Of a stretch of DNA of 20,000 nucleotides, positions 3 to 20,000 are shown piece after piece; the stretch's first letter is position 1; every line of letters begins with the position of its first letter. The stretch lies in assembly GCF_024521635.1 (NCBI RefSeq), contig NW_026250457.1, forward strand, positions 59,097-79,096. Direction: 5' to 3'. The translations under genes and the position numbers were made by a program. Origin of the DNA: Tricharina praecox. Its lineage: Eukaryota. The notes under the pieces were generated by a model. That model was not told the DNA's origin, did not search any database, and saw nothing but the letters and a program-made list of their open reading frames with translations.

Positions 3-545
3 CGAGTAGACGACTTCGAAGAATAACTTTCCAAGTCCTGTCGTATCGCCAACCGTCTGGCCACACTAGAAGCCCAACCCCAGGGCCACGCCGAGCGCGT
101 CCCGGAGCCAGCCATGTTCGATGGCACTCGATAGAAGCTCGAAGGGTTCTTTGCCCAGCTTTGACTCAAACTGTACTGCAACCATACCCGTTTCCCGTCC
201 CCAGCACTCAGAATGGCCTACACCTTCAACCGTCTCGAAGGCCGTGCCCAAGCCCAGATACTGCCGTACATCCAGAACAACGTGATCAGCTTGACCGACA
301 CCGATGCCATGGTCACCATCCTCGAAAACGCCTTCAGCGATCCCGACTCAGCGGCCACCGCACGCGCCGAACTCCACCGTCTCAAGCAAGGGAACAAGGA
401 CTTTACATCTTACTTTGCGCAGATTCAAAGGCTCGTGTCCAAGCTGAACTGGGACGAGCATGCCAAACTCGATGCACTACGCAAAGGAGTCTCCATCGAG
501 CTCCACCGACAACTGGTGGGCCGCACTCAGGGACTCACCTACAAT
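3..545 (+). pseudogene. gag: gag fragment of element A (Retrotrans_gag-like capsid region)
   Basis: Frame +3 reads ...PEPAMFDGTR*KLEGFFAQL*LKL...RFPSPALRMAYTFNRLEGRA...LENAFSDPD...ARAELHRLKQGNKDFTSYFAQIQRLVSKLNWDE...LRKGVSIEL, a typical fungal gypsy Gag. Stops at 24-26, 132-134 and 162-164. Ends abruptly near 545. Confidence 0.9.
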
Positions 546-3500
546 AGAAAAGGAGAACCTCACCATCTTTGCCACGACCCTGACGCAGATCAATGAAGTT
601 CTATCTGAAGAATAACACAGCTCAACCGCCCACATTTCCCCCGGATACCACAGATTTCTCCACGTCTTCTCTGAAAGGTTGGCGCAGAACCTACCACCCC
701 ATCGGCAATACGGCCACAAGATCCCACTGAAGAAAGGATTTGTGCCCCCTTACGGGCCCCTCTATTCGCTCTCAAAAACCGAGCTGGTCGCACTCAAGGA
801 ATGGCTTGACGACAATCTGAGTAAGGGATTCATCCTTGCGTCCTCATCACCAGCGGCATCACCGATCCTGTTTGTCAAAAAATCGGACGGCTCCTTGTGA
901 CTGTGTGTGGACTATAGAGACCTAAACGAAGGAACCATCAAGCACCGCTACCCACTTCCCCTGCCCCAGGAAACCTTGATGCGACTGTCCGGTGCAAAGT
1001 ATTTTACAACATTGGATATCCGCGGTGCTTACAACCTGGTACAAATGGCAGAAGGGGAGTAACGGAAAACGGCTTTCCGTACCCGCTACGGACTTTTCGA
1101 ATCATTGGTAAAGGCTTGCGGGCTAACCAACGCGCCAGCCGACTTTCAAGCCCTGATTAACGACGTTTTACGACCGTTTCTGGACGACTTCTGTACCGCC
1201 TTCCTAGATGACATCTTTATCTACAGCGCGTCACTGAAAGAACACTGAAAACAGGTCACCAAGGTGCTACGCGCCCTTTCATCGGCCGGACTGCACTTGA
1301 AACTGGAGAAATGCCACTTCCACCAGACAGAGGTCAAATACCTGGGCCTGATCATAACCACGGAGGGTATTAAGATAGATCCTGCCAAAGTCTCTTGCGT
1401 ACTCGAATGGGAAAAACCGACCACAGTAACGAATGTGCAGTGTTCCCTGGGCTTCGCGAACTTCTACCAGCGCTTTATCCAGGACTACTCCAAGGTGGTA
1501 TCTCCCCTGACGGCAATGACAAAAAAGGAAAATGGGAAGTACGTCCCCTTCAAATGGGGTATTGACCAACAGCAAGCCTTTGACACTCTCAAGACTGGCT
1601 TTACTACCGCCCCGATACTCCGACATTCCGACTACGACCGAGAAATAGTGGTGGAAACTGATGCCTCGGATTACGTACCGGCCGGTATCCTCTCCCAGTA
1701 CGACGCCGACGGAATCTTGCATCTGGTTGCCTTCTATTCAAAGAAACACTTCCCGGCGGAATGCAATTACGAAATCTACAACAAAGAATTGTTGGCAATT
1801 GTTCGAGCCTTTCAAGAATGGAGACCACACCTTGAAGGAGCCGCGCACCCGGCCCCAGTGCTGAGCGACCACAAGAACTTGGAATACTTCATGTCAGCCA
1901 AGTTGCTCAACCGCCGGCAAGCCCGATGGTCGGAATTCCTGTCCCGTTTCGACTTCAAAATCGTCTATAGACCTGGTAAAGCAGGAGGGAAACTGGATGC
2001 ATTGACAAGGAGGTCAGGAGACCTCCCTAAGGAGGGGGATGAAAGACTGCTGGCGAACCAACAAGCAATCCTCAAGCCCCAAAACCTGCTGGAAGAATTG
2101 AGATTGTCAGCGACCAATCCGTTGGAAGTACCCCGTCCCACTCTCTACCCTGATAACCGAAGCATATCAGGCAGATTCAGCGCCGAACAAGATCCTCCAA
2201 CTGCTCAGAAACGGAATACGCCAATCGAAGGACATCTCGCTCGTCGACTGCAGCGAAGTCAACGGACAATTACATTACCGAGATTGCTTCTACGTTCCTG
2301 AACACGACTCACTCAAACTTCGCCTGATCCAGGACCACCACGGCCCACCGGCTATGGGCCATCACGGAAGAGCTAAAACCTTGGGACTCCTGGCCGGGAA
2401 ATACTACTAGCCCCAGATGCGGAAGGACGTTGACCGATTCGTGGAAACTGCCACATTTGCAGACGAACGAAAGCAAGAACACACGCCCCCTACGGTGTGC
2501 TCAGCCCACTCCCAGTACCCGAGAAACCCTGGCAACATATCTCCGTCGAGTTCGTAACCGGACTCCCTCCCTCAAACGGATTCGATGCCATTTGCGTATT
2601 TGTGGACCGCCTCACCAAGCAACGACACCTGCTCCCTTGCAACACGACCATCACCTCTGAAGGATTCGCAGAACTATTCTGCGATCTGATCTTCAGATAC
2701 CACGGACTACCCGACACTATCGTATCGGACCGGGGCCTACAGTTTGCATCACGATTTTGAAAACATCTATGCTCTTGGCTCAAGATCGACGCACGGCTCT
2801 CCACGGCGTTCCACCCGCAGACGGACAGTCAAACAGAGAGAATGAATGCAGTAATGGAAAACACCTCCGAGTATACGTAAGCTACCTGCAGAATGACTGG
2901 GTCGACTGCCTATTCTTGGTAGAGTTTGCTGGCAACAACCAGGCATCTGACACCACCACCCTGTCCCCGTTCTTTGCTAACCTAGGCTACCACCCCCGTT
3001 GCGACTTCGAGCTTGACATCCGAACCGACAAGAAAGAAGAGCGAGAGGCACAGACAGCGGCAGAGCGACTCCAGCAGATCCATGACGTTGCCCGCAGTGA
3101 GATGCGCTACGTCCAAGCACGGCAGCAGGACAACACGGACCAGCACCGAACCCGCGCACCGGCCTTCCAGCCTGGAGATATGGTATGGGTGGACGGCCCA
3201 AACTGGCGAACGGAGCAACCAAGCCGAAAACTGGAAAACAAGCACCTCGGACGCTATCGGATTACCCGAGCCATCGGAAACCACGCATACAAACTGGACA
3301 TTCCGAACACCATCCAGAAGCACCGCACCTTCCCAGTATCCCTCCGCCACGCATCCGCTGACGACACCCTCCCCGGCCAGATCCTGCCGCCACCGTTACC
3401 AATAATTGTGAACGACCAAGAAGAATGGGAGGTGGAGGAAGTGCTCTACAGCAGAACGCTGAGGGGAAGACTCCAGTACCTAGTCAAGTGGAGGGGTTTC

Positions 3501-3551
3501 GCAGCACCGATGTGGGAACCTGAGGACAACCTTGTGGACGTACAGGCAGTG

Positions 3552-4241
3552 TGTGAGACTGGGACGGGTTTGTGTCGTCGGAGTCTATAGTAAAATCGAG
3601 GATAGAATAAAAGTCAGGGATTTCGATAATTCACAACGGAATAATCTTAAGGGTGTTTTGTTCGATGGTTTGTTCGGTGCGGTGATTGTAGTTTGTTCAG
3701 TTGCCAGCTCGGTTCGACTTATAGTCGTCCCGATCCTCAGCACGTGATTCCTCTAGAGTGCGGCCTAACCTAGCTCCGTTGCTTCCTTTGCATCGGAGTT
3801 CCGCGGCCTAGCCTTGAGTCGTCGTCAGCTCTCTTCGGATAGTCTTCTCGACTAGGCAGGTGGTAAACACCACGCGCCCAAGATAGATCGGAGTTTCCGA
3901 GCAATTATCTCCCTCATGCGCCGGCAGAGTTCTTCGCTCGAAGTTGTCTGCCCCCATCGGTCGATGTTCGATTCTCTCGTCATAACAGTTTTTTCCTGGA
4001 TCGGAGTTCCTACTGCGGGGCCCTATGATAGGAGATCTCAAAGTCCTCTGGACTGTTATCCCGATCTCCCGCATCTCCGATCACTGTCTAGACTCTGGAA
4101 TCCGTTTGCTCCCTCCTTCCTATCTTGTCTTTGATCGCTTCTAACTATCCTTTCGGCTCGCAACTCTATTCTAATCACCCGAACTATCTAATCACATCTG
4201 TTGCGACCGTCGTGTCCTCCGATACCTATCGGGGTGTCACA
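3552..4241. mobile_element. Solo LTR (690 bp) related to element B, with 5-bp TSD CAGTG
   Basis: Termini TGTGAGAC...GTGTCACA (7/8 inverted match). Flanked by direct repeat CAGTG (3547-3551 and 4242-4246). Removing it restores the chromodomain frame VDVQAV|EDFHQRYP. Its first ~110 bp align with 6494-6600. Confidence 0.93.
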
Positions 4242-9231: not shown

Positions 9232-9815
9232 TGCGCGAGGCGGTAGTTGATTGGAAGAAGAAGACTCGGCAGAATTGACGCGGAAGAGGATAATTAACGG
9301 AGCACAGGGACGCAGGATACATCACAGCAGTGTGACATTTATGGACTGCTATACTGAACATTGAAGCGCGTGAACTTCATTCACTCGCCACGGCGGATCC
9401 GCCGGCCAAAAAGCGCCTACCGTAGGTTAATGTGAGGAGGATAGCGGCAGTAATGGTGGAGAATTGGCTAAGATTCCTCGGAAGAGTCCACGTTAATCCG
9501 CGGGTGAATAAACCTTCTGCACCAAGTTCGCCAGTTTGTAAACGTGCTTTCGACGTTGTGTAAGTAGTCAGCTCGGGAAATATCTCTCTTCATCTGAGGA
9601 ATATACCTTTCCGTATGAACAAATACTGGATTTACATAGCATCCCCTCTCTCGTAAACGTAAATGATGTTGCGGAGCCGCCAAAAGCGCCTGCAGTTAGG
9701 TCATTTCCTCAGAACCCTAACGAAATACTCGATACTGCACCGAGTGATGGTGGCGGCCATGATTTCGCCGACGGTTTTTGGCTAGTTCTTTGGATATTCC
9801 AACCCCACGAACCCT

Positions 9816-9823
9816 TATAAATA
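9816..9823 (+). promoter_or_regulatory. TATA box, copy 1
   Basis: TATAAATA followed by a CT-rich tract typical of fungal transcription-start regions. Conserved in copy 2. Confidence 0.7.
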
Positions 9824-10037
9824 CCTCCGTCTTCCCCCACTCCTCTTCCCTTTCTTTCTTCGTGAATTCTCAAGACTTGCTCCTGATCCCAACGTTTACG
9901 TTCTGCTCAACCCTCTCTTGCACTTCACACTTTTGTTGCATCGCAACCACCCTTTTCTGCTCTTGCTCTCGCTCTTGCTCTGCTCTTGCTCCCTTTTCTT
10001 TCTACTCCCTCTTCCTCCTCCCTCTTCTTCCTCCCTT

Positions 10038-10730
10038 TACGACTACGGTCGTATATTTTTCGAAAGGTCGTCTAAGGTACATATCTCACGCTACTTTACT
10101 ACCCCACGGGGTTCTCCCATACCTGCAGAAAACGACTGACGAAACTACTACTAGGACTTCCTAGAGATCCTACGGGACTGTTAGATTACGACTACAGTCG
10201 GAAATCATTGAAGAGGTTGTCTACGGTACATATCTCTCTATACGTCACTACAGCATGGGGTTCTCCCTTGTTTGTGGAAACTGACTGACGAAACCACTAC
10301 TAGGACTTCCTACAGATCCTGCGGGACTGTTAGATTACGATTACGGTGGGTAATCTTTGCAGAGGTTGTCTACGGTACATACCTCCCAACACTTTACAAC
10401 ACCCGGGTGTTCTCTTATATCTACGGAATGTGACTGACTAAATCACAATCAGGACTTCCAGAGACGTACTACGGTAGTGTCCGATTTTACGACTACGGTC
10501 GGTAATTTCTTTTTCGGTCGTCTAAGGTGAATATCCCTAAAGTTATTCCATGGTTGCAAAAACCGACTGACCAAACCACCATCAAGACTTCAAAGTAGAC
10601 TTACTACGGTAGTGTCAGATAAGACTACGGTCGATATCTTTTTCTGAGATAGTTTACGGTACATATCGCCTTATACACTCTTTCCGTAGTGCGTGAAATA
10701 ACTGACTGTGCGCCATCAAGACACCTAGAT
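10038..10730 (+). other. Tandem array of five ~149-bp exon+intron modules with UNCG-type hairpins (putative spliced non-coding leader or ncRNA), copy 1
   Basis: Predicted introns 10077-10154, 10226-10303, 10375-10452, 10527-10586 and 10659-10720 (GTACAT/GTGAAT...ACTGAC...YAG; the last two end in AAG). Internal exons are 71-74 nt, ATG-free, and do not join into an open frame. Confidence 0.75.
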
Positions 10731-10785
10731 TTATTTTTACGGATTACTTCACAAGACCGAGTTTGTGCAAGTAAAGTTGTCAGAT

Positions 10786-11929
10786 ATGAACAACGTTCCA
10801 ATCAAGATTGTGGCGAAGGTGTGCGGCGGTGGTGTCGACGGCGGGTAACGGCCCCAACAGGATAGCCAACAAGTCGGTTTTCGAAGACTTGGACAACTCC
10901 GACTGTGAGATGAGAGACGGCGACGACGATGGCGAAAATTCCGACTCCGGGGATGGAGCTTCTTTCGTTGCTCCTCCTCTTGACTGTGACGATGAAGACA
11001 GTGACTCTGACTTCTACGACGAAGACAAGGACGACGACAAGAAGGCCGATCACAAGAAGGCCGATGACAAGAAAGGAGACGACCCTAAAGGCGGCGACGA
11101 TGGCGGCAAATCCTCCTCCGGCGATGGAGCTCATGCGATTCCTCCTCCTCCTGCGATTCCTCCTCCTAGCTGTGACGACGAAGACAGTGACGCCGAGTTC
11201 TACATGGAAGACGAAGACGTCGACAAGAAGGACGGAGAGGCAGGCGAACCTGCAGCGATTCGTGTTCTGCTGGAATGGCGGGAGGGTGGGAACGATGATG
11301 ACGATGATGACGATGACGACGATGAGAAAGACTCTCATGATGATGACCAGAGTGGGCTAAGTGTGAGTCCACTGGATGACGACGAACTAGAGTCCCTCGT
11401 GGCTTGTTTTGAGAAGCTTTACCTATCTCGCAAGAGAAGTGTGTCGGCTGCGGCTGTCGTTGGTCAACAGAGCAGTGCACTTCTTTGCCCTCGGGCCACC
11501 GGACCTGCCAAAGACACGGACGCAGACGGAATGGAGTCACTTGTGGCTCTCTTTGCGAACCTTTCGGTGTCTGATGAGAGAACCGACAAGGACGGGATGG
11601 AGTCACTTGTGACTCGCTTCAAGAAGCTGTCAGTGTCTGGCAAGAGAGCTCAGGATGCCGTGTTGGCTCCGGCTCCTCCCAAGGACACGGACGGGGTGGA
11701 GTCACTTGTGGGTCTGTTCGCGCACTGGTCGGTGTCTGACGGGACAACCGACAAGGACGGGATGGAGTCACTTGTGGCTCGCTTCAAGAAGCTGTCCGTG
11801 TCTCGCAAGAGACGGCAGGATAGTGTGTCGGCTCCGAGTCGTCGTGACGAAGTGGACTACGTTGGGCAGACGGTGAGGCAAGTGTCTTTGGTACTCACAT
11901 TTGATTGCCAGCGACACCATACATCTTAA
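10786..11929 (+). CDS. Orphan acidic, low-complexity protein with tandem NES-like repeats; frameshifted near 10845 (possible pseudogene, or starts at ATG 10910, 339 aa)
   Basis: Long open frame 10808-11929, D/E-rich, with repeats DGMESLVxxFxxLSVS. The ATG at 10786 matches the paralog's ATG at 15431 but stops at 10846-10848 because of a 1-nt indel. Confidence 0.55.
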
Positions 11930-11967: not shown

Positions 11968-12600
11968 CAGGGCCTCTCTGCCTGACCACTGCGTTCGCTC
12001 CCAGGGCGCTGTACTCGATTCCCTCCCAGGTCTCTCTTCCTCTATACTGCATTCACTCCCAGGCCTCTCTACTGGATTCGCTCCAAGACCTCTCTACCGG
12101 ATTCGCTGCCAGGGACCTCTACTCGATTCGCTCCCAGGGCTCTCTTCCTCTATACTGCATTTACTCCTAGACCTCTCTACTGGATTCGCTCCAAGGCCTA
12201 TCTAATGGATTCGCTCCAAGGCCTCTCTGCAGGATTCCCTCCGAGGCCTCTCAACTGGATTCACTCCCATGCCTCTCTACTGGATTCCCTCCCAAAGGCC
12301 ACTCTATCTCCCCACTGGATTCGCTCCAACGCCTCTTTACTGGATTCGCTGCAAGGCCTCTGTTTGATTCGCTGCCATCAACTCTCTACTGGATTCGTTC
12401 CCATTCCTCTCTACTGGATTCACTCTCATGCCTCTCTACCGGATTCGCTCCCAATGCCTCTCTACTGCATTTGCTCCCAGGGCCTCTACTGCATTCGCTC
12501 CAAGGGCCGCTACTGCATTCGCTACCATGGCCTCTCTGTTGGACTGGCTGCCATGGCTCTGTACGGGATTCGCGGCCATTCCCTCTCTACTGGACTCACG
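11968..12600. repeat. Degenerate 25-bp minisatellite (~AGGCCTCTCTACTGGATTCGCTCCC), roughly 25 units
   Basis: Recurrent CTCTCTACTGGATTCGCT at a ~25-bp period. Confidence 0.9.
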
Positions 12601-13714
12601 ACGATTTTCCCACGCAAAATGGCAACCACTTTCGCGGCGAGAGAGAGACAAGGCGGCATAGCAATTCTCGTCAACAACACAGACATCAGACCAACAACAG
12701 CCTACAACACGCCCGCTAAATTCATGTCCGCCGCGGATGTCGCAGCTCCACGTTTTCAGCAGCAACATTTCAGCAGTTTGAAGGATCCGTGACGCACGAC
12801 AACAGTAAAGTCAGTTCTAAACAAAAGTAGGTTGGACACAAATTACTACCACCAACGGCGACGCAGTCACGGTTCACAGAGGAGAAGCGAGTGGACTACC
12901 GCGACTGGATTCATTCGGTATCCTCACATGAAAACACCACCGGGGACCCAATTAAAACCGCCTTTGGAACCATCAGTACGATGCCGAAACGAGATTCGGA
13001 GCCGGACTCCGACGCACCCCGCCCCTCCTACTGACTGAGTGACCAGTCGTACCACTGCGCCGCAGGAAGTGACCACGGCAGACAACGATTCCACCGACTG
13101 TACTGGATGGTGCTGTAGTAGAAGGATGGGTTCTGAGAAAGAGGAGGGTTGGCATGCAAGTGGAAAAGATTGTACAGTAACATCCGAGATCAATGCAGTG
13201 TTTGTTGTGTTAGTGAGAATTCAATTCAATTGATGTTTGACGAGGATTGGTACTGCAGAATGTAGTCGCCAAAGCAGTACCGTAACCGTACAGCCAGCAG
13301 TGGTGGTGGTGGTGGTGATGGTGATCTCGAGCCCGTAATACTACTTGCCGGTTTCGGGTTCAGCATGCCATTCTATCCTTGGGCCAGCCGACGTCGGCAA
13401 ACTTCTATGGCTGGGGAGTCTGGCCCAGGATGAGATATGCCGGAAAAATCGATCCATGGTCCGGCCAGTTGTGACATTCGACCCACCTATACAGGGGCCG
13501 GTCCATGTATACACGGGCCGGTCCATCTATTGATGCGCGGGCCCATCTGAAGAACAATATATCTGCCCAATGGCATAGAACATATATAGTACCCAGCCTG
13601 CTGGTGATCAGGAATTTCCCACACCAAATGAAAAACACAATCGTGGCAAGAGAGAGAGAAGAAGGTACGGTTCTTTGGTTACTTAATGCCATTTTCAGCG
13701 AGTCTGTACATGTC

Positions 13715-14105
13715 AATTTATCATGGTTAGCGAACGGCGAGGGTTCTTTGTTGCCAGGTCCTCATGACTGGTGGTATTCGCTGCCATGGCATCTCTGCCT
13801 CTCTACGGCATTCGCTCTCAGTGCTTTATCACTGCATTCGCTCCCAGAGCTCACCACTGCATTTACTCCCAGAGATGCATCACTAGTTCGCTCTCAGGGC
13901 TCTATACTAGACTTGCTACCAGGGCTCTATACTGGAATCGCTGTTAGGGCTTCATCACTGCATTTTCTCCCTGAACTCAGCCCTGCATTCGCTCCCAGGG
14001 CTCTGTACTGGAGTCGCTGCCATGACTGTGTACTAGATTCGCTGTCTGCCAGAGAGACTGTGCTGCATTTGCTATCGTGGCCTCAGTACGGGATTCGCTG
14101 TTGTG
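13715..14105. repeat. Second, more degenerate block of the 25-bp minisatellite with the same 5' flank
   Basis: ATCATGGTTAGCGAACGGCGAGG matches ATCATGATTGGCGAACGGCGAGG at ~11932. Followed by repeated CTGCATTCGCTCCCAGGGCTCT-like units. Confidence 0.8.
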
Positions 14106-14524
14106 GGTTCGATGATGGTGGTTACTTGACGGATGTCATTTGTGTTTTTAGTTGCCACGAAAAAAAAACTGATGTGTCGCGAAAAAAAACGTTTTTTTGG
14201 ACAAGGACTTAATCCAGACTTTTCTGTCGCCGCGACGAGATGCTAGTGATTTACGACAGGAACAAGCCTGGTGCGAGACTATTTTCATCTATCTAGAGGA
14301 ATATATCTTTCCGTGTGGGCAAATATCTGGAAGTACATCATGTAGCATACCCTCTCCCGTAAACGTACGTGATGTTGCGGAGCCGCCAAAAGCGCCTGTA
14401 GTTACGTCATTTCTTTGCAACCCTAACTCCTCAGCGGGATACTGCCACCGAGTGATGGTGGCGGCCGAAAGTTCGCCGACGGTTTTTGGCTAGTTTGTTT
14501 GGATATTCCAAACCTACCAAACAG

Positions 14525-14532
14525 TATAAATA
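14525..14532 (+). promoter_or_regulatory. TATA box, copy 2
   Basis: TATAAATA at the position homologous to 9816, followed by a CT-rich tract. Confidence 0.7.
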
Positions 14533-14802
14533 GCTCCGTCTTCCTCCACCCCTCTTCCCTTTCTTCCTTCGTGAATTCTCAAGACCTCCTGATCTCAACG
14601 TTTACGTTCTGCTCAACCCTCTCTTGCACTTCACACCTTTGTTGCATCGCAACCCCCCTTTCTGCTCTTGCTCTTACTCTACTCTTGCTCCCTTTTCTTC
14701 CTCCTGCTCCCTCTTCCTCTTCCCTTTTCCTCCTGCCTTCAAGTTTTCTTGTGCACAGCACAAGTCACGAAGAGCTTGCGACAGCAAGTCTCATTTCGAC
14801 TT

Positions 14803-15375
14803 CGGACTACGGTCCGTTGCGCTTTCTGACCACGGTTAGTTTTTTTTCTCGAAAGGTCGTCTAAGGTACATGTCTCCCTCCCCCATGCTTGCGGAAAACG
14901 ACTGACGAAACACTACTAGGACTTCCTATACAGATCCTACGGGACTGAGATTACGACTACGGTCGAGAATCTTTGAAAAGGTTGTCTACGGTACATATCT
15001 ACCTCGATTCTACTACACCCGGTGGGTCTCCCATATTTGCGGAACGTGACTGACCAAGCCAATCAGGACTTCCCGGAGACGTACTACGGTAGTGTCCGAT
15101 TTTACGACTACGGTCGGTAATTTCTTTTACGGTCGTCTAAGGTGAATATCTATATAGACTCTGCTACAACTGGGAGTTCTTCCATGATTGCCAAAGCGTA
15201 TTTACCAAACCACCATCAGGACTTCCTAGTAGACCTACTACGGTAGTGTCAGATAAGACTACGGTCGATATCTTTTTCTGAGGTAGTTTACGGTACATAT
15301 CCCCACATACACTCTACCACGCCTGGAGGTTCTTCCACAGTGCGGTACTGACCGTACCACCATCAGAACACCTAG
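14803..15375 (+). other. Tandem array of four exon+intron modules with UNCG-type hairpins, copy 2
   Basis: Predicted introns 14866-14919, 14991-15066, 15142-15219 (weak branch site) and 15293-15366, all GT...YAG. Internal exons are 71, 75 and 73 nt. Confidence 0.75.
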
Positions 15376-15430
15376 ATGTTTTTACGGATTACTTCACAAG
15401 ACCGAGTTTGTGATTGTAAAGTTTTCAGAG

Positions 15431-15940
15431 ATGGACAACGTTTCCAGAAAGATTTTGGGGAAGGTGCGCAGCGGCGGTGGCGGCGGTGGCAATGGCTCCG
15501 ACAAGATGGCCTACAAGTCGAAGATCGAAGACTTCGACAGCGAGATGGAAGACGGCGGTGACGGCGATAACGACAACTCCGACTCCGGGAATGGAGCTCC
15601 TTTTGTTGCTCCAGGTGAACGTGCAGCGCTTTGCGCTCTGCGGGACTGGCGGGAGGGCGGGGAGGGGGGGGGGGGTGGTGACGACTCCGACGACTCCGAC
15701 GACGCCGACGATGAGGACGGCTCTGACGATGAGGACGACGCCAACGATGAGGACGGCTCCGACGATGATGATGACCAAGGTGGAGTATGTGAGAGTCCAC
15801 CTGACGCGGACGAACTAGACTCCCTCGTGGCTCTTTTTGAGACGCTTTACGTGTCTCGCAAGACGACTCAGAGAATTGTGTCCGCTGCGGCTGTGGTCGA
15901 CCAGCAGAGCAGTGGACCTGCCAAAGAGGCCAGGATGTAA
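15431..15940 (+). CDS. Orphan acidic protein (169 aa), shorter paralog of the 10786-11929 ORF, with one NES-like motif
   Basis: MDNVSRKILGKVRSGGGG...DSDDADDEDGSDD...DELDSLVALFETLYVSRK...AAAVVDQQSSGPAKEARM*. Colinear with the copy 1 protein. Confidence 0.55.
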   Translation: MDNVSRKILGKVRSGGGGGGNGSDKMAYKSKIEDFDSEMEDGGDGDNDNSDSGNGAPFVAPGERAALCALRDWREGGEGGGGGDDSDDSDDADDEDGSDDEDDANDEDGSDDDDDQGGVCESPPDADELDSLVALFETLYVSRKTTQRIVSAAAVVDQQSSGPAKEARM

Positions 15941-18300: not shown

Positions 18301-19572
18301 TGAGGGTAACGAGATCATGATCACGGCTCCCGACAAACCATATGCCACCGACAACGGGATTGCTTTACGCCTGGGATAGTGTTGTCTGCTGTTACGAGAT
18401 GTGGTATGATAAGATCAGATGGGATAAGATATCAGAATAGGAGCAGGCGCAGATGACTTCTGGAGACGCACAACGCTAGCGGCATTCGGGTTAGGCTTGG
18501 TGGAGCAGAGGAGTGCGGGGCGCGGAGGCAGAGGCGGCTTGGCGTCATCGGTGATCGCCCAAGAGGAGACCTGATTGAAACCTGGTGGGACCTGATGCAG
18601 TCGCTCAACGTTGAATTTTTTCTACTTTTCTACATTCTCTCGTCCTGTCGCCGGTCGGTCCTCATCCTCATCTTCTTCTTTATCTTCATTATCACCATCA
18701 TCATCGACCGAAAGCTTTAGTCTAATTGATCACGTTTTTGTTCCTCACCCGTTTCTGGGTCCCTCAGCAGCCCACGAGGTGGCGCTCTGAGCGGTAGTCA
18801 GAATAGCAACCTTCTCATCGTACTCCTCACATTTACTGCTTGCCCGGCTACGAGATACGACAAACGCCTCCTTCCAGGCGGTTCTCCGTGCCAGCTTCTT
18901 CGATTTGTCAGCCGTACAATCTTCCGCGCCGGACCCGGCCGGGGTTGCAGAATTGCCGCTACCCACGTAATCCCCCCACATGGCCCGTAGCGGCACCACC
19001 ACACGGCGCGCTGCAATTGAGATACACGATAGGGCTAGTGCGAGATGGCTTCATTCGCTATTAACGCGGCCGAATTCAATTCTAGCCACGATTTCGCGAG
19101 GGATCATTCGTCAATGCCTCTCCAGGAAGACACGCGTGAGGAGAAATGGCGAAGACACAGAAAATAGCGAAGGCGGAGTGTCACCGTCGACTGGATATAT
19201 GCTGATCAAGAAAGAAGAAGAGAGCCTGCGGGTCCTAGTTTAACTTCACCTGCCTCCCAACTTGGCCGACCCCACCATCTTGCAGACTACAGTAACCACA
19301 TTCGTTCCCTCTCGCTGACAGCTCCTCCATCCCGCCGGCACAACGGAAATAGAGGTCAACTATCCATGTAGCAAATTTCGCAATGCGGGAAACTTTTACT
19401 TACGGCCGGTAGCTGAGGGTGATGAGGTGGGGGAGTCTGGGTTGCAAAGAAGTTACCGATCGTTCCGTCTGCATATTTATACCGTCTCTTCTCCACAGTA
19501 GATATCGACACTAAATAATCCTTTCAGCACATCACAGCACCGTTCGTCGCGATCTAAAATCCCACCAGCTCG

Positions 19573-19580
19573 TATAATAA
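19573..19580 (+). promoter_or_regulatory. TATA-like element of the hydrolase gene
   Basis: TATAATAA lies 45 bp upstream of an ATG in AAACAATG context. Confidence 0.4.
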
Positions 19581-19617
19581 TACCTTTCACCGCAATCCAA
19601 CTTCCGCATCTAAAACA

Positions 19618-20000
19618 ATGTCGATTCTCAGCAGCACCTTCGCTTGCCAGACCCATACCTACCAAAGCGCGCCCACAACGGCCCTCGACGTTTACAAACC
19701 TGCCAACCACTGTCCTGCCTCGCGCCACAAGACTCTCATCCTATTCCACGGTGGCGGGCTCACCACCGGGAGTCGCGACGTGTTCATCCCCGTCGGTATC
19801 GCCACCCAGCTGCTGAACCGGGGCTGGATTGTCATCTCAGCGGACTATTCGCTTCTCCCGCAGGCGAGCGGACTATCGTTGCTCCGCAACCTCGCCAACA
19901 TCGAGACGTGGATCACCGAGAACGCGGCGAAGGAGGGAATCGACACGACCAACGTTGCCGTCGGCGGCGAGAGCGCGGGAGGGTACATGAGTATCCTTGC
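19618..20000 (+). CDS. Alpha/beta hydrolase, HSL/Abhydrolase_3 esterase family (5' part; runs off the window)
   Basis: Open frame MSILSSTF...LDVYKP...LILFHGGGLTTGSR...RGWIVISADYSLLPQ...IDTTNVAVGGESAGGYMSIL contains the HGGG oxyanion motif and the GxSAGG nucleophile elbow. Missing from the ORF track because no stop falls in the window. Confidence 0.93.
   Translation, partial: MSILSSTFACQTHTYQSAPTTALDVYKPANHCPASRHKTLILFHGGGLTTGSRDVFIPVGIATQLLNRGWIVISADYSLLPQASGLSLLRNLANIETWITENAAKEGIDTTNVAVGGESAGGYMSIL

Follow-up and report, generated by a model that had tools for sequence, protein, structure and literature searches.

A candidate RNA hairpin array in the repeated exon–intron leaders of two paralogous genes of Tricharina praecox

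The stretch of DNA analysed here, hereafter the window, comprises 20,000 nucleotides from the cup fungus Tricharina praecox (Pezizomycetes; contig NW_026250457.1, positions 59,097 to 79,096 of the forward strand) and contains two tandem paralogous genes, whose promoter, leader and start of the coding sequence align with each other by self-comparison (window positions 9592–10974 for gene 1 and 14291–15612 for gene 2). Each leader contains an array of tandem units in which an exon-like segment bearing two small hairpins with UNCG-class loops alternates with an intron-like segment. The loop and its closing pair are fixed, the stems co-vary, the linkers are relaxed and the introns run free, a combination consistent with selection for RNA hairpins in the mature leader. 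Judged from the sequence, we give an even chance to the reading that the spliced leader carries a selected, RNA-level hairpin array, acting in cis as a post-transcriptional element, probably in translation control or protein binding.

The array of gene 1 was detected by Tandem Repeats Finder (TRF) as a repeat at 10037–10720 (period 149, 3.1 copies, 77% matches) and that of gene 2 as a repeat at 14951–15268 (period 151, 2.1 copies). A unit of about 149 bp consists of an exon of 71–75 nt and an intron of 54–78 nt, with five leader introns in gene 1 (60–78 nt) and four in gene 2 (54–78 nt). A donor GT is present in all nine units, as GTACAT in seven and GTGAAT in two; the branch-site motif ACTGAC lies 40–60 nt after the donor in eight units, the remaining one (15142–15219) having ATTTAC; and a YAG acceptor is found in every unit, 15–19 nt after ACTGAC in the eight units that have this motif. 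The GT donor, YAG acceptor and length of about 50–80 nt that characterize fungal U2-type introns are thus found in nine of nine units, and a CTRAC-type branch site in eight. The head-to-tail arrangement of repeats that each contain a full set of splice signals, as seen by TRF and in the unit alignment, is that of intron multiplication by tandem duplication. The position of the arrays follows from P0002, a paralogue encoded on another contig: its N-terminus (MDNV) corresponds to the residues encoded from 15431 in gene 2 and from 10786 in gene 1, which places both arrays between promoter and start codon, upstream of the ATG.

The difference in divergence described below, the density of ATG triplets, the retention of splice signals and the splice sites of the public model of gene 1 (P0001) all suggest that the leader segments are true exons and introns. 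Splice signals are kept in every unit despite intron bodies that have diverged by about 18% and accumulated many indels. ATG occurs six times in 638 intron nucleotides and once in 1,146 leader-exon nucleotides (Fisher p 0.010), and the spliced leaders would contain none in gene 1 and one in gene 2, compared with about eight under a mononucleotide expectation. It is very probable that the leader is spliced as drawn. The initial annotation had called the segments exons outright; they are indeed bounded by intron-like signals, from which, and not from observation, their exon status is deduced. The array predates the duplication of the gene: four unit types occur in both genes, and the divergence between types exceeds that between paralogous partners. 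Each leader is likely to have arisen by tandem duplication of the exon-plus-intron unit of about 149 bp. In read mapping, four runs gave no contig over 9500–10801 or 14000–15575 and no joints. One run of unspecified kind covers only 11013–11289, 11333–11518 and 11662–11812, and three metatranscriptome runs yielded only 31-letter pieces at the low-complexity segment 15647–15681, plus one partial piece at 11032–11073. The pieces at 15647–15681, a G-run with GAC-rich sequence in gene 2, are contigs from unrelated soil metatranscriptomes at 90–95% likeness; they represent a mapping artefact and carry no evidence of expression.

A scan of both strands of the window for C-(TNCG)-G with at least three perfect stem pairs returned 14 cUNCGg hairpins on the + strand, seven per gene, all of them within the two 0.7 kb arrays (1,406 nt) and none elsewhere in the window (~18.6 kb). 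Only two were found on the − strand of the window, neither of them inside an array, and in 200 mononucleotide shuffles the count averaged 1.46 and never exceeded five. The excess is real but does not represent 14 independent events, because a unit carrying two hairpins was duplicated. Each exon presents two, hairpin B and, downstream of it, hairpin A. All eight hairpins listed in the initial annotation were recovered, namely hairpin B of gene 1 exons 2–5 (10168–10177, 10317–10326 with a TGCG loop, 10467–10476 and 10602–10611), hairpin A of gene 1 exons 4 and 5 (10490–10501 and 10623–10632), a hairpin in the tail of gene 1 exon 1 (10038–10053) and one in the first exon of gene 2 (14803–14816). 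The 17 module loops in alignments A2 and A3 comprise 14 UACG and one each of UGCG, CACG and UACA, so that 15 fit UNCG; the CACG loop fits YNMG and the UACA loop does not. Both UGCG and CACG belong to the UNCG/YNMG class as it is described in PMC5633025. The closing pair is C-G in seven of seven distinct hairpin B sequences and in six of seven distinct hairpin A sequences, the remaining one being U-G, and the local hairpins have predicted nearest-neighbour energies of −3.6 to −11.5 kcal/mol at 37 °C.

A third hairpin may arise where exons are joined. The exons end in GUCUACG or GUCUAAG and start with GACUUCC, and ligation consequently makes GUC-UACG-GAC at three of the nine junctions and GUC-UAAG-GAC at three more; joining would add two cUACGg hairpins in gene 1 and one in gene 2. 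In predicted folds the same bases can instead pair the two ends of each exon. The earlier estimate of about three hairpins per module therefore holds for some modules only, and the figure of a dozen or more in each transcript slightly overstates the count, given seven perfect hairpins per gene and the two (gene 1) or one (gene 2) that joining would contribute. An exon profile run against the window retrieved only seven full and two partial units (all other rows at E >= 0.55), and self-comparison of the window, made with a view to introner-like elements, which exist as many near-identical intron copies scattered over unrelated genes, placed unit copies only in the two paralogous leaders.

The consensus fold of the seven full exons obtained with RNAalifold contains an end-to-end exon stem, hairpin B and hairpin A, 14 pairs altogether. 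In this consensus 94.8% of the cells are paired, compared with 87.8 ± 2.2% in shuffles (none of 500 reaches the observed value), and sliding the partners by one to three columns lowers pairing to 19–46%. The compensatory stem changes proposed in the initial annotation stand for hairpin B, in which the closing C-G never varies and the loop remains compatible with UNCG, and are few in hairpin A, which barely covaries. The three inner pairs of hairpin B are intact in all seven distinct sequences and show no uncompensated change, and two of the inner pairs change on both sides (U-A to G-C and A-U to C-G). The reported switch between TCC/GGA and TAC/GTA, one of these two changes, is real, the pair being A-U in four and C-G in three of the seven full exons, and a second pair of the hairpin switches as well (C-G in four, G-C in three). 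The covariation score of hairpin B is 0.448, compared with 0.137 in shuffles (0/500 reach it), and sliding its partner by one column reduces pairing from 80% to 63% or 40%. The only compensated changes of hairpin A are those of gene 2 exon 1, in which a CUGAC/GUUAG stem carries the CACG loop. Some stems hold G-U pairs.

Between the paralogues, identity is 90–97% in the leader exons, 75–84% in the introns and 79% in the first ~190 nt of the coding sequence. The leader exons differ at 20 of 301 aligned pairs, with seven gap columns, and the introns at 44 of 244, with 70 gap columns (Fisher p 4.8e-5 on mismatches alone, 6e-17 when gaps are counted as well). Within the exons, hairpin cores differ at four of 88 columns and the other columns at 25 of 206 (p 0.054), counts that are not fully independent, as one gene 2 exon enters two of the four comparisons. 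Compared with intron mismatches, the hairpin cores are significantly better kept (p 0.0013), whereas the non-core exon columns are not clearly so (p 0.089). The hairpin cores are the best-kept bases of the whole duplicated locus, and the leader exons outdo the coding sequence. In all likelihood the exons are under constraint, and we lean slightly towards the hairpins being the constrained feature; constraint that is strongest on the hairpin cores would mean that the function of the leader, as an RNA element acting in cis, resides in the hairpins.

A number of results weigh against a selected hairpin array in a spliced leader. The usual fungal donor is GTRNGT, to which an A at +5 is a weak match, and all nine donors have this A, in GTACAT or GTGAAT alike. 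The depletion of ATG is weak under dinucleotide shuffles: gene 1 has zero where the shuffles average 3.1 (39 of 1,000 have as few), and gene 2 has one where they average 2.2 (311 of 1,000 have no more). The RNAalifold consensus is itself weak (−7.6 kcal/mol, covariation term −0.3), and only two pairs of the whole exon change on both sides, a number reached by 390 of 500 shuffles. Hairpin A is mostly invariant, its covariation score being reached by 48 of 500 shuffles, and is off-consensus in three of nine modules, one having a UACA loop, another a broken stem and the third a CACG loop. About two branch events, among seven to nine related sequences of one genome, account for the compensatory changes, and relatedness alone can place a set of sequences above every shuffle when no structure exists. 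Single exons do not fold more stably than their dinucleotide shuffles, z lying between −0.04 and −2.76 for 11 segments and below −2 in just one. Finally, folding of the complete spliced leaders (−120.6 and −135.9 kcal/mol) leaves many of the tetraloop hairpins in place, but several are out-competed; in that of gene 1, seven of the 12 candidate loops have predicted closing-pair probabilities of only 0.00–0.28, because the repeats can pair with each other.

One alternative is that the hairpins are passengers, the exons being constrained for splicing, AUG avoidance or intron-mediated enhancement, the palindromes having been copied along with the units and the paired changes being due to chance or to template-switch mutation. 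Leader exons this short, lying between splice sites that are almost identical, might depend on their precise sequence to be spliced correctly. Template switching, in which one arm of an inverted repeat is rewritten from the other, has been described as a source of apparent compensatory change (10.1101/2021.04.15.439925). The unremarkable folding energies agree with such an origin, as do the degradation of hairpin A in modules that are themselves retained and the fairly good conservation of the non-core exon columns (the 25 differences in 206 columns mentioned above), which have almost no indels; splicing itself looks selected, given the splice signals kept in nine of nine units. Passengers would nevertheless not be expected to form the most conserved columns of the locus while substitutions are not clearly rarer in the non-core exon columns than in the introns, nor to keep three inner pairs of hairpin B free of uncompensated changes, nor to have three of their four loop sequences (UACG, UGCG and CACG) in one structural class, as that class is presented in PMC5633025. 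We regard the passenger explanation as rather unlikely.

Alternatively, CTACGG could be a DNA site read by, for example, a zinc-cluster factor recognizing CGG, with the array serving as a downstream enhancer and RNA pairing being irrelevant. CTACGG is the invariant core of the hairpins and 17 of its 22 copies in the window fall within the arrays; it also occurs at the exon–intron border, where no hairpin forms before splicing, and the promoter block was duplicated together with the arrays. A DNA site gives no reason for its flanks to change yet stay complementary, and the border copy is not conserved, being CTAAGG in four of seven module-type borders and TTACGG in two further ones. Moreover, several stems contain G-U pairs, which are A-C mismatches on the other strand, and all the hairpins of the arrays are in the sense orientation of the genes, the only two on the − strand of the window being outside the arrays. 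This makes a DNA-level function quite unlikely.

A young neutral minisatellite, in which the exons are alike through recent duplication or gene conversion and neither hairpins nor introns have a function, is very unlikely. The tandem repetition, the different number of units in the paralogues (five introns compared with four), the confinement of the gene family to one species in the protein search and the possible decay of gene 1, suggested by a frame break near 10846, are all in keeping with it. Exons and introns, however, alternate every ~75 nt and yet differ several-fold in divergence and indel load, a pattern that neither recency nor conversion tracts explain, and the unit types predate the gene duplication but have retained their splice signals.

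That the modules code for protein, as in P0001, whose N-terminal region includes parts of three of them (residues ~37–82 map to 10168–10224, 10315–10347 and 10455–10502), is extremely improbable, as both leaders spliced at the homologous sites have several stops in all three frames and that of gene 1 lacks an ATG, P0001 would need a different, non-homologous splice choice in each module, a start at 9453 and a skipped conserved ATG, P0002 starts at the conserved MDNV ATG, and a search with the module-derived peptide matched only P0001 itself (one of six candidates). A further idea, that the hairpins are substrates for the adenosine-to-inosine mRNA editing of the fungal sexual stage, by the tRNA deaminase, or mimics of the tRNA-Arg anticodon, was set aside: the loop A and the U at −1 fit, but +1 is C. 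At this position C is depleted and lowers editing when introduced, the preferred residue being A or G (PMC9600606).

If the spliced leader does carry a selected hairpin array, the leader would have grown by tandem copying of a unit made of an exon and a spliceosomal intron, and splicing would yield an mRNA leader of ~450–570 nt that is nearly AUG-free. Each 71–75 nt exon would present two small hairpins capped by the extra-stable cUACGg and some junctions would form a third, giving nine to eleven small, very stable hairpins per leader, with purifying selection acting on the exons and most strongly on the hairpin cores. Such a leader might act by either of two routes. The hairpins could form a row of stable roadblocks that makes scanning dependent on an RNA helicase, or an RNA-binding protein that recognizes the loop could dock on them repeatedly; that a specific partner exists is less likely than not, and the sponge and localization roles put forward in the initial annotation are hypothetical. 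A still more speculative and, in our view, unlikely proposal is that of a natural multivalent tetraloop array assembled by splicing, which would couple the splicing of a multi-intron leader with weak donors to translation, stability or localization. As the junction hairpin would be formed by exon ligation, only the fully spliced mRNA would show the complete periodic row to a protein that reads the loops.

An array assembled in this way would be a fungal leader element of a class not described before, matching in nature what engineered hairpin arrays do by design. On the main reading, the leader would be an instance of expansion through copying of exon and intron together in which the copies were retained for a small RNA structure and not for a protein. 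It would also provide a natural system in which to study the effect of rows of mini-hairpins on scanning ribosomes, and to ask whether fungal proteins read UNCG-class loops and whether splicing builds RNA structure across exon junctions. The weight of the case is limited, since the array is seen in a single species, in two orphan genes and perhaps a third.

The initial annotation did not recognize the element as a described fungal RNA family, and the Rfam comparison agrees: Rfam 15, the curated collection of described families, gave no match at the gathering threshold over the window, and a search of 9800–10850 with E values up to 10, viral elements included, returned only two chance-level rows (16.3 and 12.3 bits, with thresholds of 60 and 36). 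The exons are tRNA-sized and have paired ends, and ARAGORN found no tRNA gene in the window. A metagenome scan for hairpin A followed by the donor site gave eight loci, all unrelated and mostly GC-rich, coding-like and without repeated units, and the open-access literature searched offered no description of tandem exon–intron units with a hairpin array in a fungal leader. The ingredients, namely UNCG hairpins, structured leaders, hairpin arrays in untranslated regions (UTRs) and intron multiplication by tandem duplication, are known; their combination is not.

The transferrin-receptor 3′ UTR carries five iron-responsive elements, and engineered MS2/PP7 arrays exist. The leaders described here resemble both, in that a small hairpin whose loop is fixed and whose stem varies recurs at intervals of tens of nucleotides in a UTR, a layout that would give multivalent protein binding. 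They differ in loop class, in lying in a fungal 5′ leader, in having units that are separated by introns in the gene and in that the binding partner is hypothetical.

At the level of the individual hairpin, the closest parallel is with the cUNCGg/YNMG hairpins common in rRNA and other structured RNAs, with which the leader hairpins share the UACG loop (also UGCG and CACG, on the class definition of PMC5633025), the C-G closing pair and the pattern of a fixed loop and closing pair on a varying stem. Those of large folded RNAs differ from the present ones, which form a periodic row in an mRNA leader on stems of three to six pairs, in a fold that is predicted. The initial annotation had also stated that cUACGg is a protein-bound loop of stem-loop D in the enterovirus cloverleaf, in agreement with PMC5633025, where UACG, CACG and UGCG are described as the commonest loop variants of domain d of the oriL cloverleaf in Enterovirus B and C genomes, the same three variants of the UNCG class as are found here. 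The likeness stops at the loop class: the viral stem-loop D is a single hairpin within a four-way cloverleaf at the end of the viral genome, bound by the viral protease 3C/3CD, whereas here the hairpins lie in the leader of a fungal nuclear gene, with no cloverleaf, virus or 3C homologue.

Intron gain by tandem genomic duplication has been described in cases in which, as here, the duplicated segment carries splice signals and each copy adds an intron (PMC4974935; PMC2891723). In the cases presented there one intron was added inside a coding sequence, while in T. praecox a unit of exon plus intron was multiplied four to five times in an untranslated leader and its exon part is constrained. The structured RNA motifs of fungal UTRs and introns reported by Li and Breaker (2017; PMC5640933) are likewise fungal cis-elements derived from sequence analysis, and the hairpin of their SART-1 motif frequently has a UNCG loop; in contrast to the present arrays, repeated units do not figure in the account given of these motifs, in whose text the word 'tandem' occurs 0 times.

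The features of the two leaders, all on the + strand, are as follows. In gene 1 the tail of exon 1 (10037–10076, recovered by nhmmer as a partial module match) contains the hairpin at 10038–10053, a cUACGg hairpin of 6 bp (−8.0 kcal/mol). Leader intron 1 (10077–10154, 78 nt), delimited by its splice signals GTACAT, ACTGAC and TAG, is followed by exon 2 (10155–10225, 71 nt), in which hairpin B has a UACG loop and hairpin A a UACA loop at 10193–10196. Intron 2 (10226–10303, 78 nt) has a 5′ splice site that appears to be the same as in the public gene model. In exon 3 (10304–10374, 71 nt) hairpin B has the UGCG loop and the inner stem of hairpin A is broken, its outer GAUUAC/GUAAUC pairing being kept; the 3′ splice site of intron 3 (10375–10452, 78 nt), at 10452, again seems to coincide with that of the public model. 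Exon 4 (10453–10526, 74 nt), with both hairpins, is 97.3% identical to gene 2 exon 3. Splice signals then define intron 4 (10527–10586, 60 nt; GTGAAT, ACTGAC and AAG), exon 5 (10587–10658, 72 nt), again with both hairpins, and intron 5 (10659–10720, 62 nt). The last leader exon (10721–10788) includes the start codon at 10786–10788, an ATG that aligns with the MDNV start of P0002, and a predicted hairpin at about 10744–10774.

The 3′ part of the first leader exon of gene 2 (14746–14865) contains four hairpins, at 14748–14764, 14774–14789 (GACA loop), 14803–14816 (cUACGg, 5 bp) and 14826–14839 (cCACGg, 5 bp with one G-U). Compared with gene 1, this exon has about 110 extra bases (within 14746–14842), and its first two hairpins, which precede the cUACGg and cCACGg ones, are strong, with a 7 bp stem and three-base loop and a 6 bp stem and GACA loop, respectively. 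Intron 1 (14866–14919, 54 nt), intron 2 (14991–15066, 76 nt) and intron 4 (15293–15366, 74 nt) are delimited by splice signals, and in intron 3 (15142–15219, 78 nt) the branch motif is degraded to ATTTAC. They separate exon 2 (14920–14990, 71 nt; hairpins 14935–14944 and 14954–14965), exon 3 (15067–15141, 75 nt; hairpins 15082–15091 and 15105–15116), exon 4 (15220–15292, 73 nt; hairpins 15235–15246 and 15257–15266) and the last leader exon (15367–15433), which includes the start codon at 15431–15433 and has the sole upstream ATG of either spliced leader.

Further elements recur in both leaders. The last leader exon contains an additional conserved predicted hairpin (10744–10774 in gene 1, 15394–15413 in gene 2), 10–35 nt upstream of both start codons. 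A U-rich tract follows each hairpin A (10054–10062, 10502–10516, 10633–10647 and 14840–14850). A bacterial promoter and terminator scan, which is not meaningful for a fungus, flagged only 10038–10053, because a T-run follows this hairpin. A small palindrome of the type GGGGTTCTCCC is common to the longer introns (10105–10120, 10254–10270 and their gene 2 counterparts) and is deleted in the short introns at 10527–10586 and 14866–14919.

Upstream of the leaders, the promoter blocks (9592–10037 and 14291–14739) are 84.5% identical by self-comparison, and the value for the promoter block in the region-wise comparison is 88%. On the + strand each contains a TATA-like TATAAATA box recognized from its sequence (9816–9823 in gene 1, within the promoter block that is duplicated upstream of gene 2, and 14525–14532 in gene 2), followed by a pyrimidine-rich stretch. 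In gene 1 this stretch (9840–10036, + strand) has short CT repeats, is 93.6% identical to its gene 2 counterpart and is the putative site of transcription start, where the leader begins.

Protein searches with the sequences downstream of the arrays matched only two proteins, both hypothetical proteins of T. praecox (two of 6,435 candidates passed, and 2/8,000 in a repeat search), and Pfam contains no family for the acidic low-complexity proteins encoded downstream of both arrays. The features of the window are eukaryotic and of fungal type. Genes 1 and 2 are, as far as these searches indicate, species-restricted orphan paralogues for predicted acidic low-complexity proteins. The long open frame of gene 1 (10790–11929, + strand), identified from the list of open reading frames (ORFs) and the protein search, is one base off the frame of the ATG at 10786. 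Compared with gene 2 and P0002, gene 1 thus has a one-base frame break: the frame of the conserved ATG stops at 10846–10848, and that of 10790–11929 continues one base off. The break could reflect misassembly of a G/C run, or gene 1 may be starting to decay. The exon matches of P0001 are identical to the window. This model takes as its start the ATG at 9453, which precedes the TATA-like box; it passes over the conserved start codon and translates pieces of three leader modules (window 9453–10808). It is probably a mis-annotation, a prediction artefact translating leader sequence that was brought about by the one-base frame break near 10846.

Arrays of a 25 nt unit are present at 12039–12594 (about 21.5 copies) and 13799–14043 (about 9.7 copies). 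The first is open on the + strand in all three frames (ORFs 11986–12792, 12171–12719 and 12368–12661) and is therefore readable as a 25-residue protein repeat in any phase; the C-terminus of P0001 uses part of it. Elsewhere in the window, positions 165–3590 on the + strand contain a broken Ty3/Tf2-type chromovirus retrotransposon, with gag, reverse transcriptase/RNase H, integrase, SH3 and chromodomain sequences split over several frames, and positions 19558–19998 hold the start of an alpha/beta-hydrolase gene (BD-FAE/Abhydrolase_3) that runs past the end of the window.

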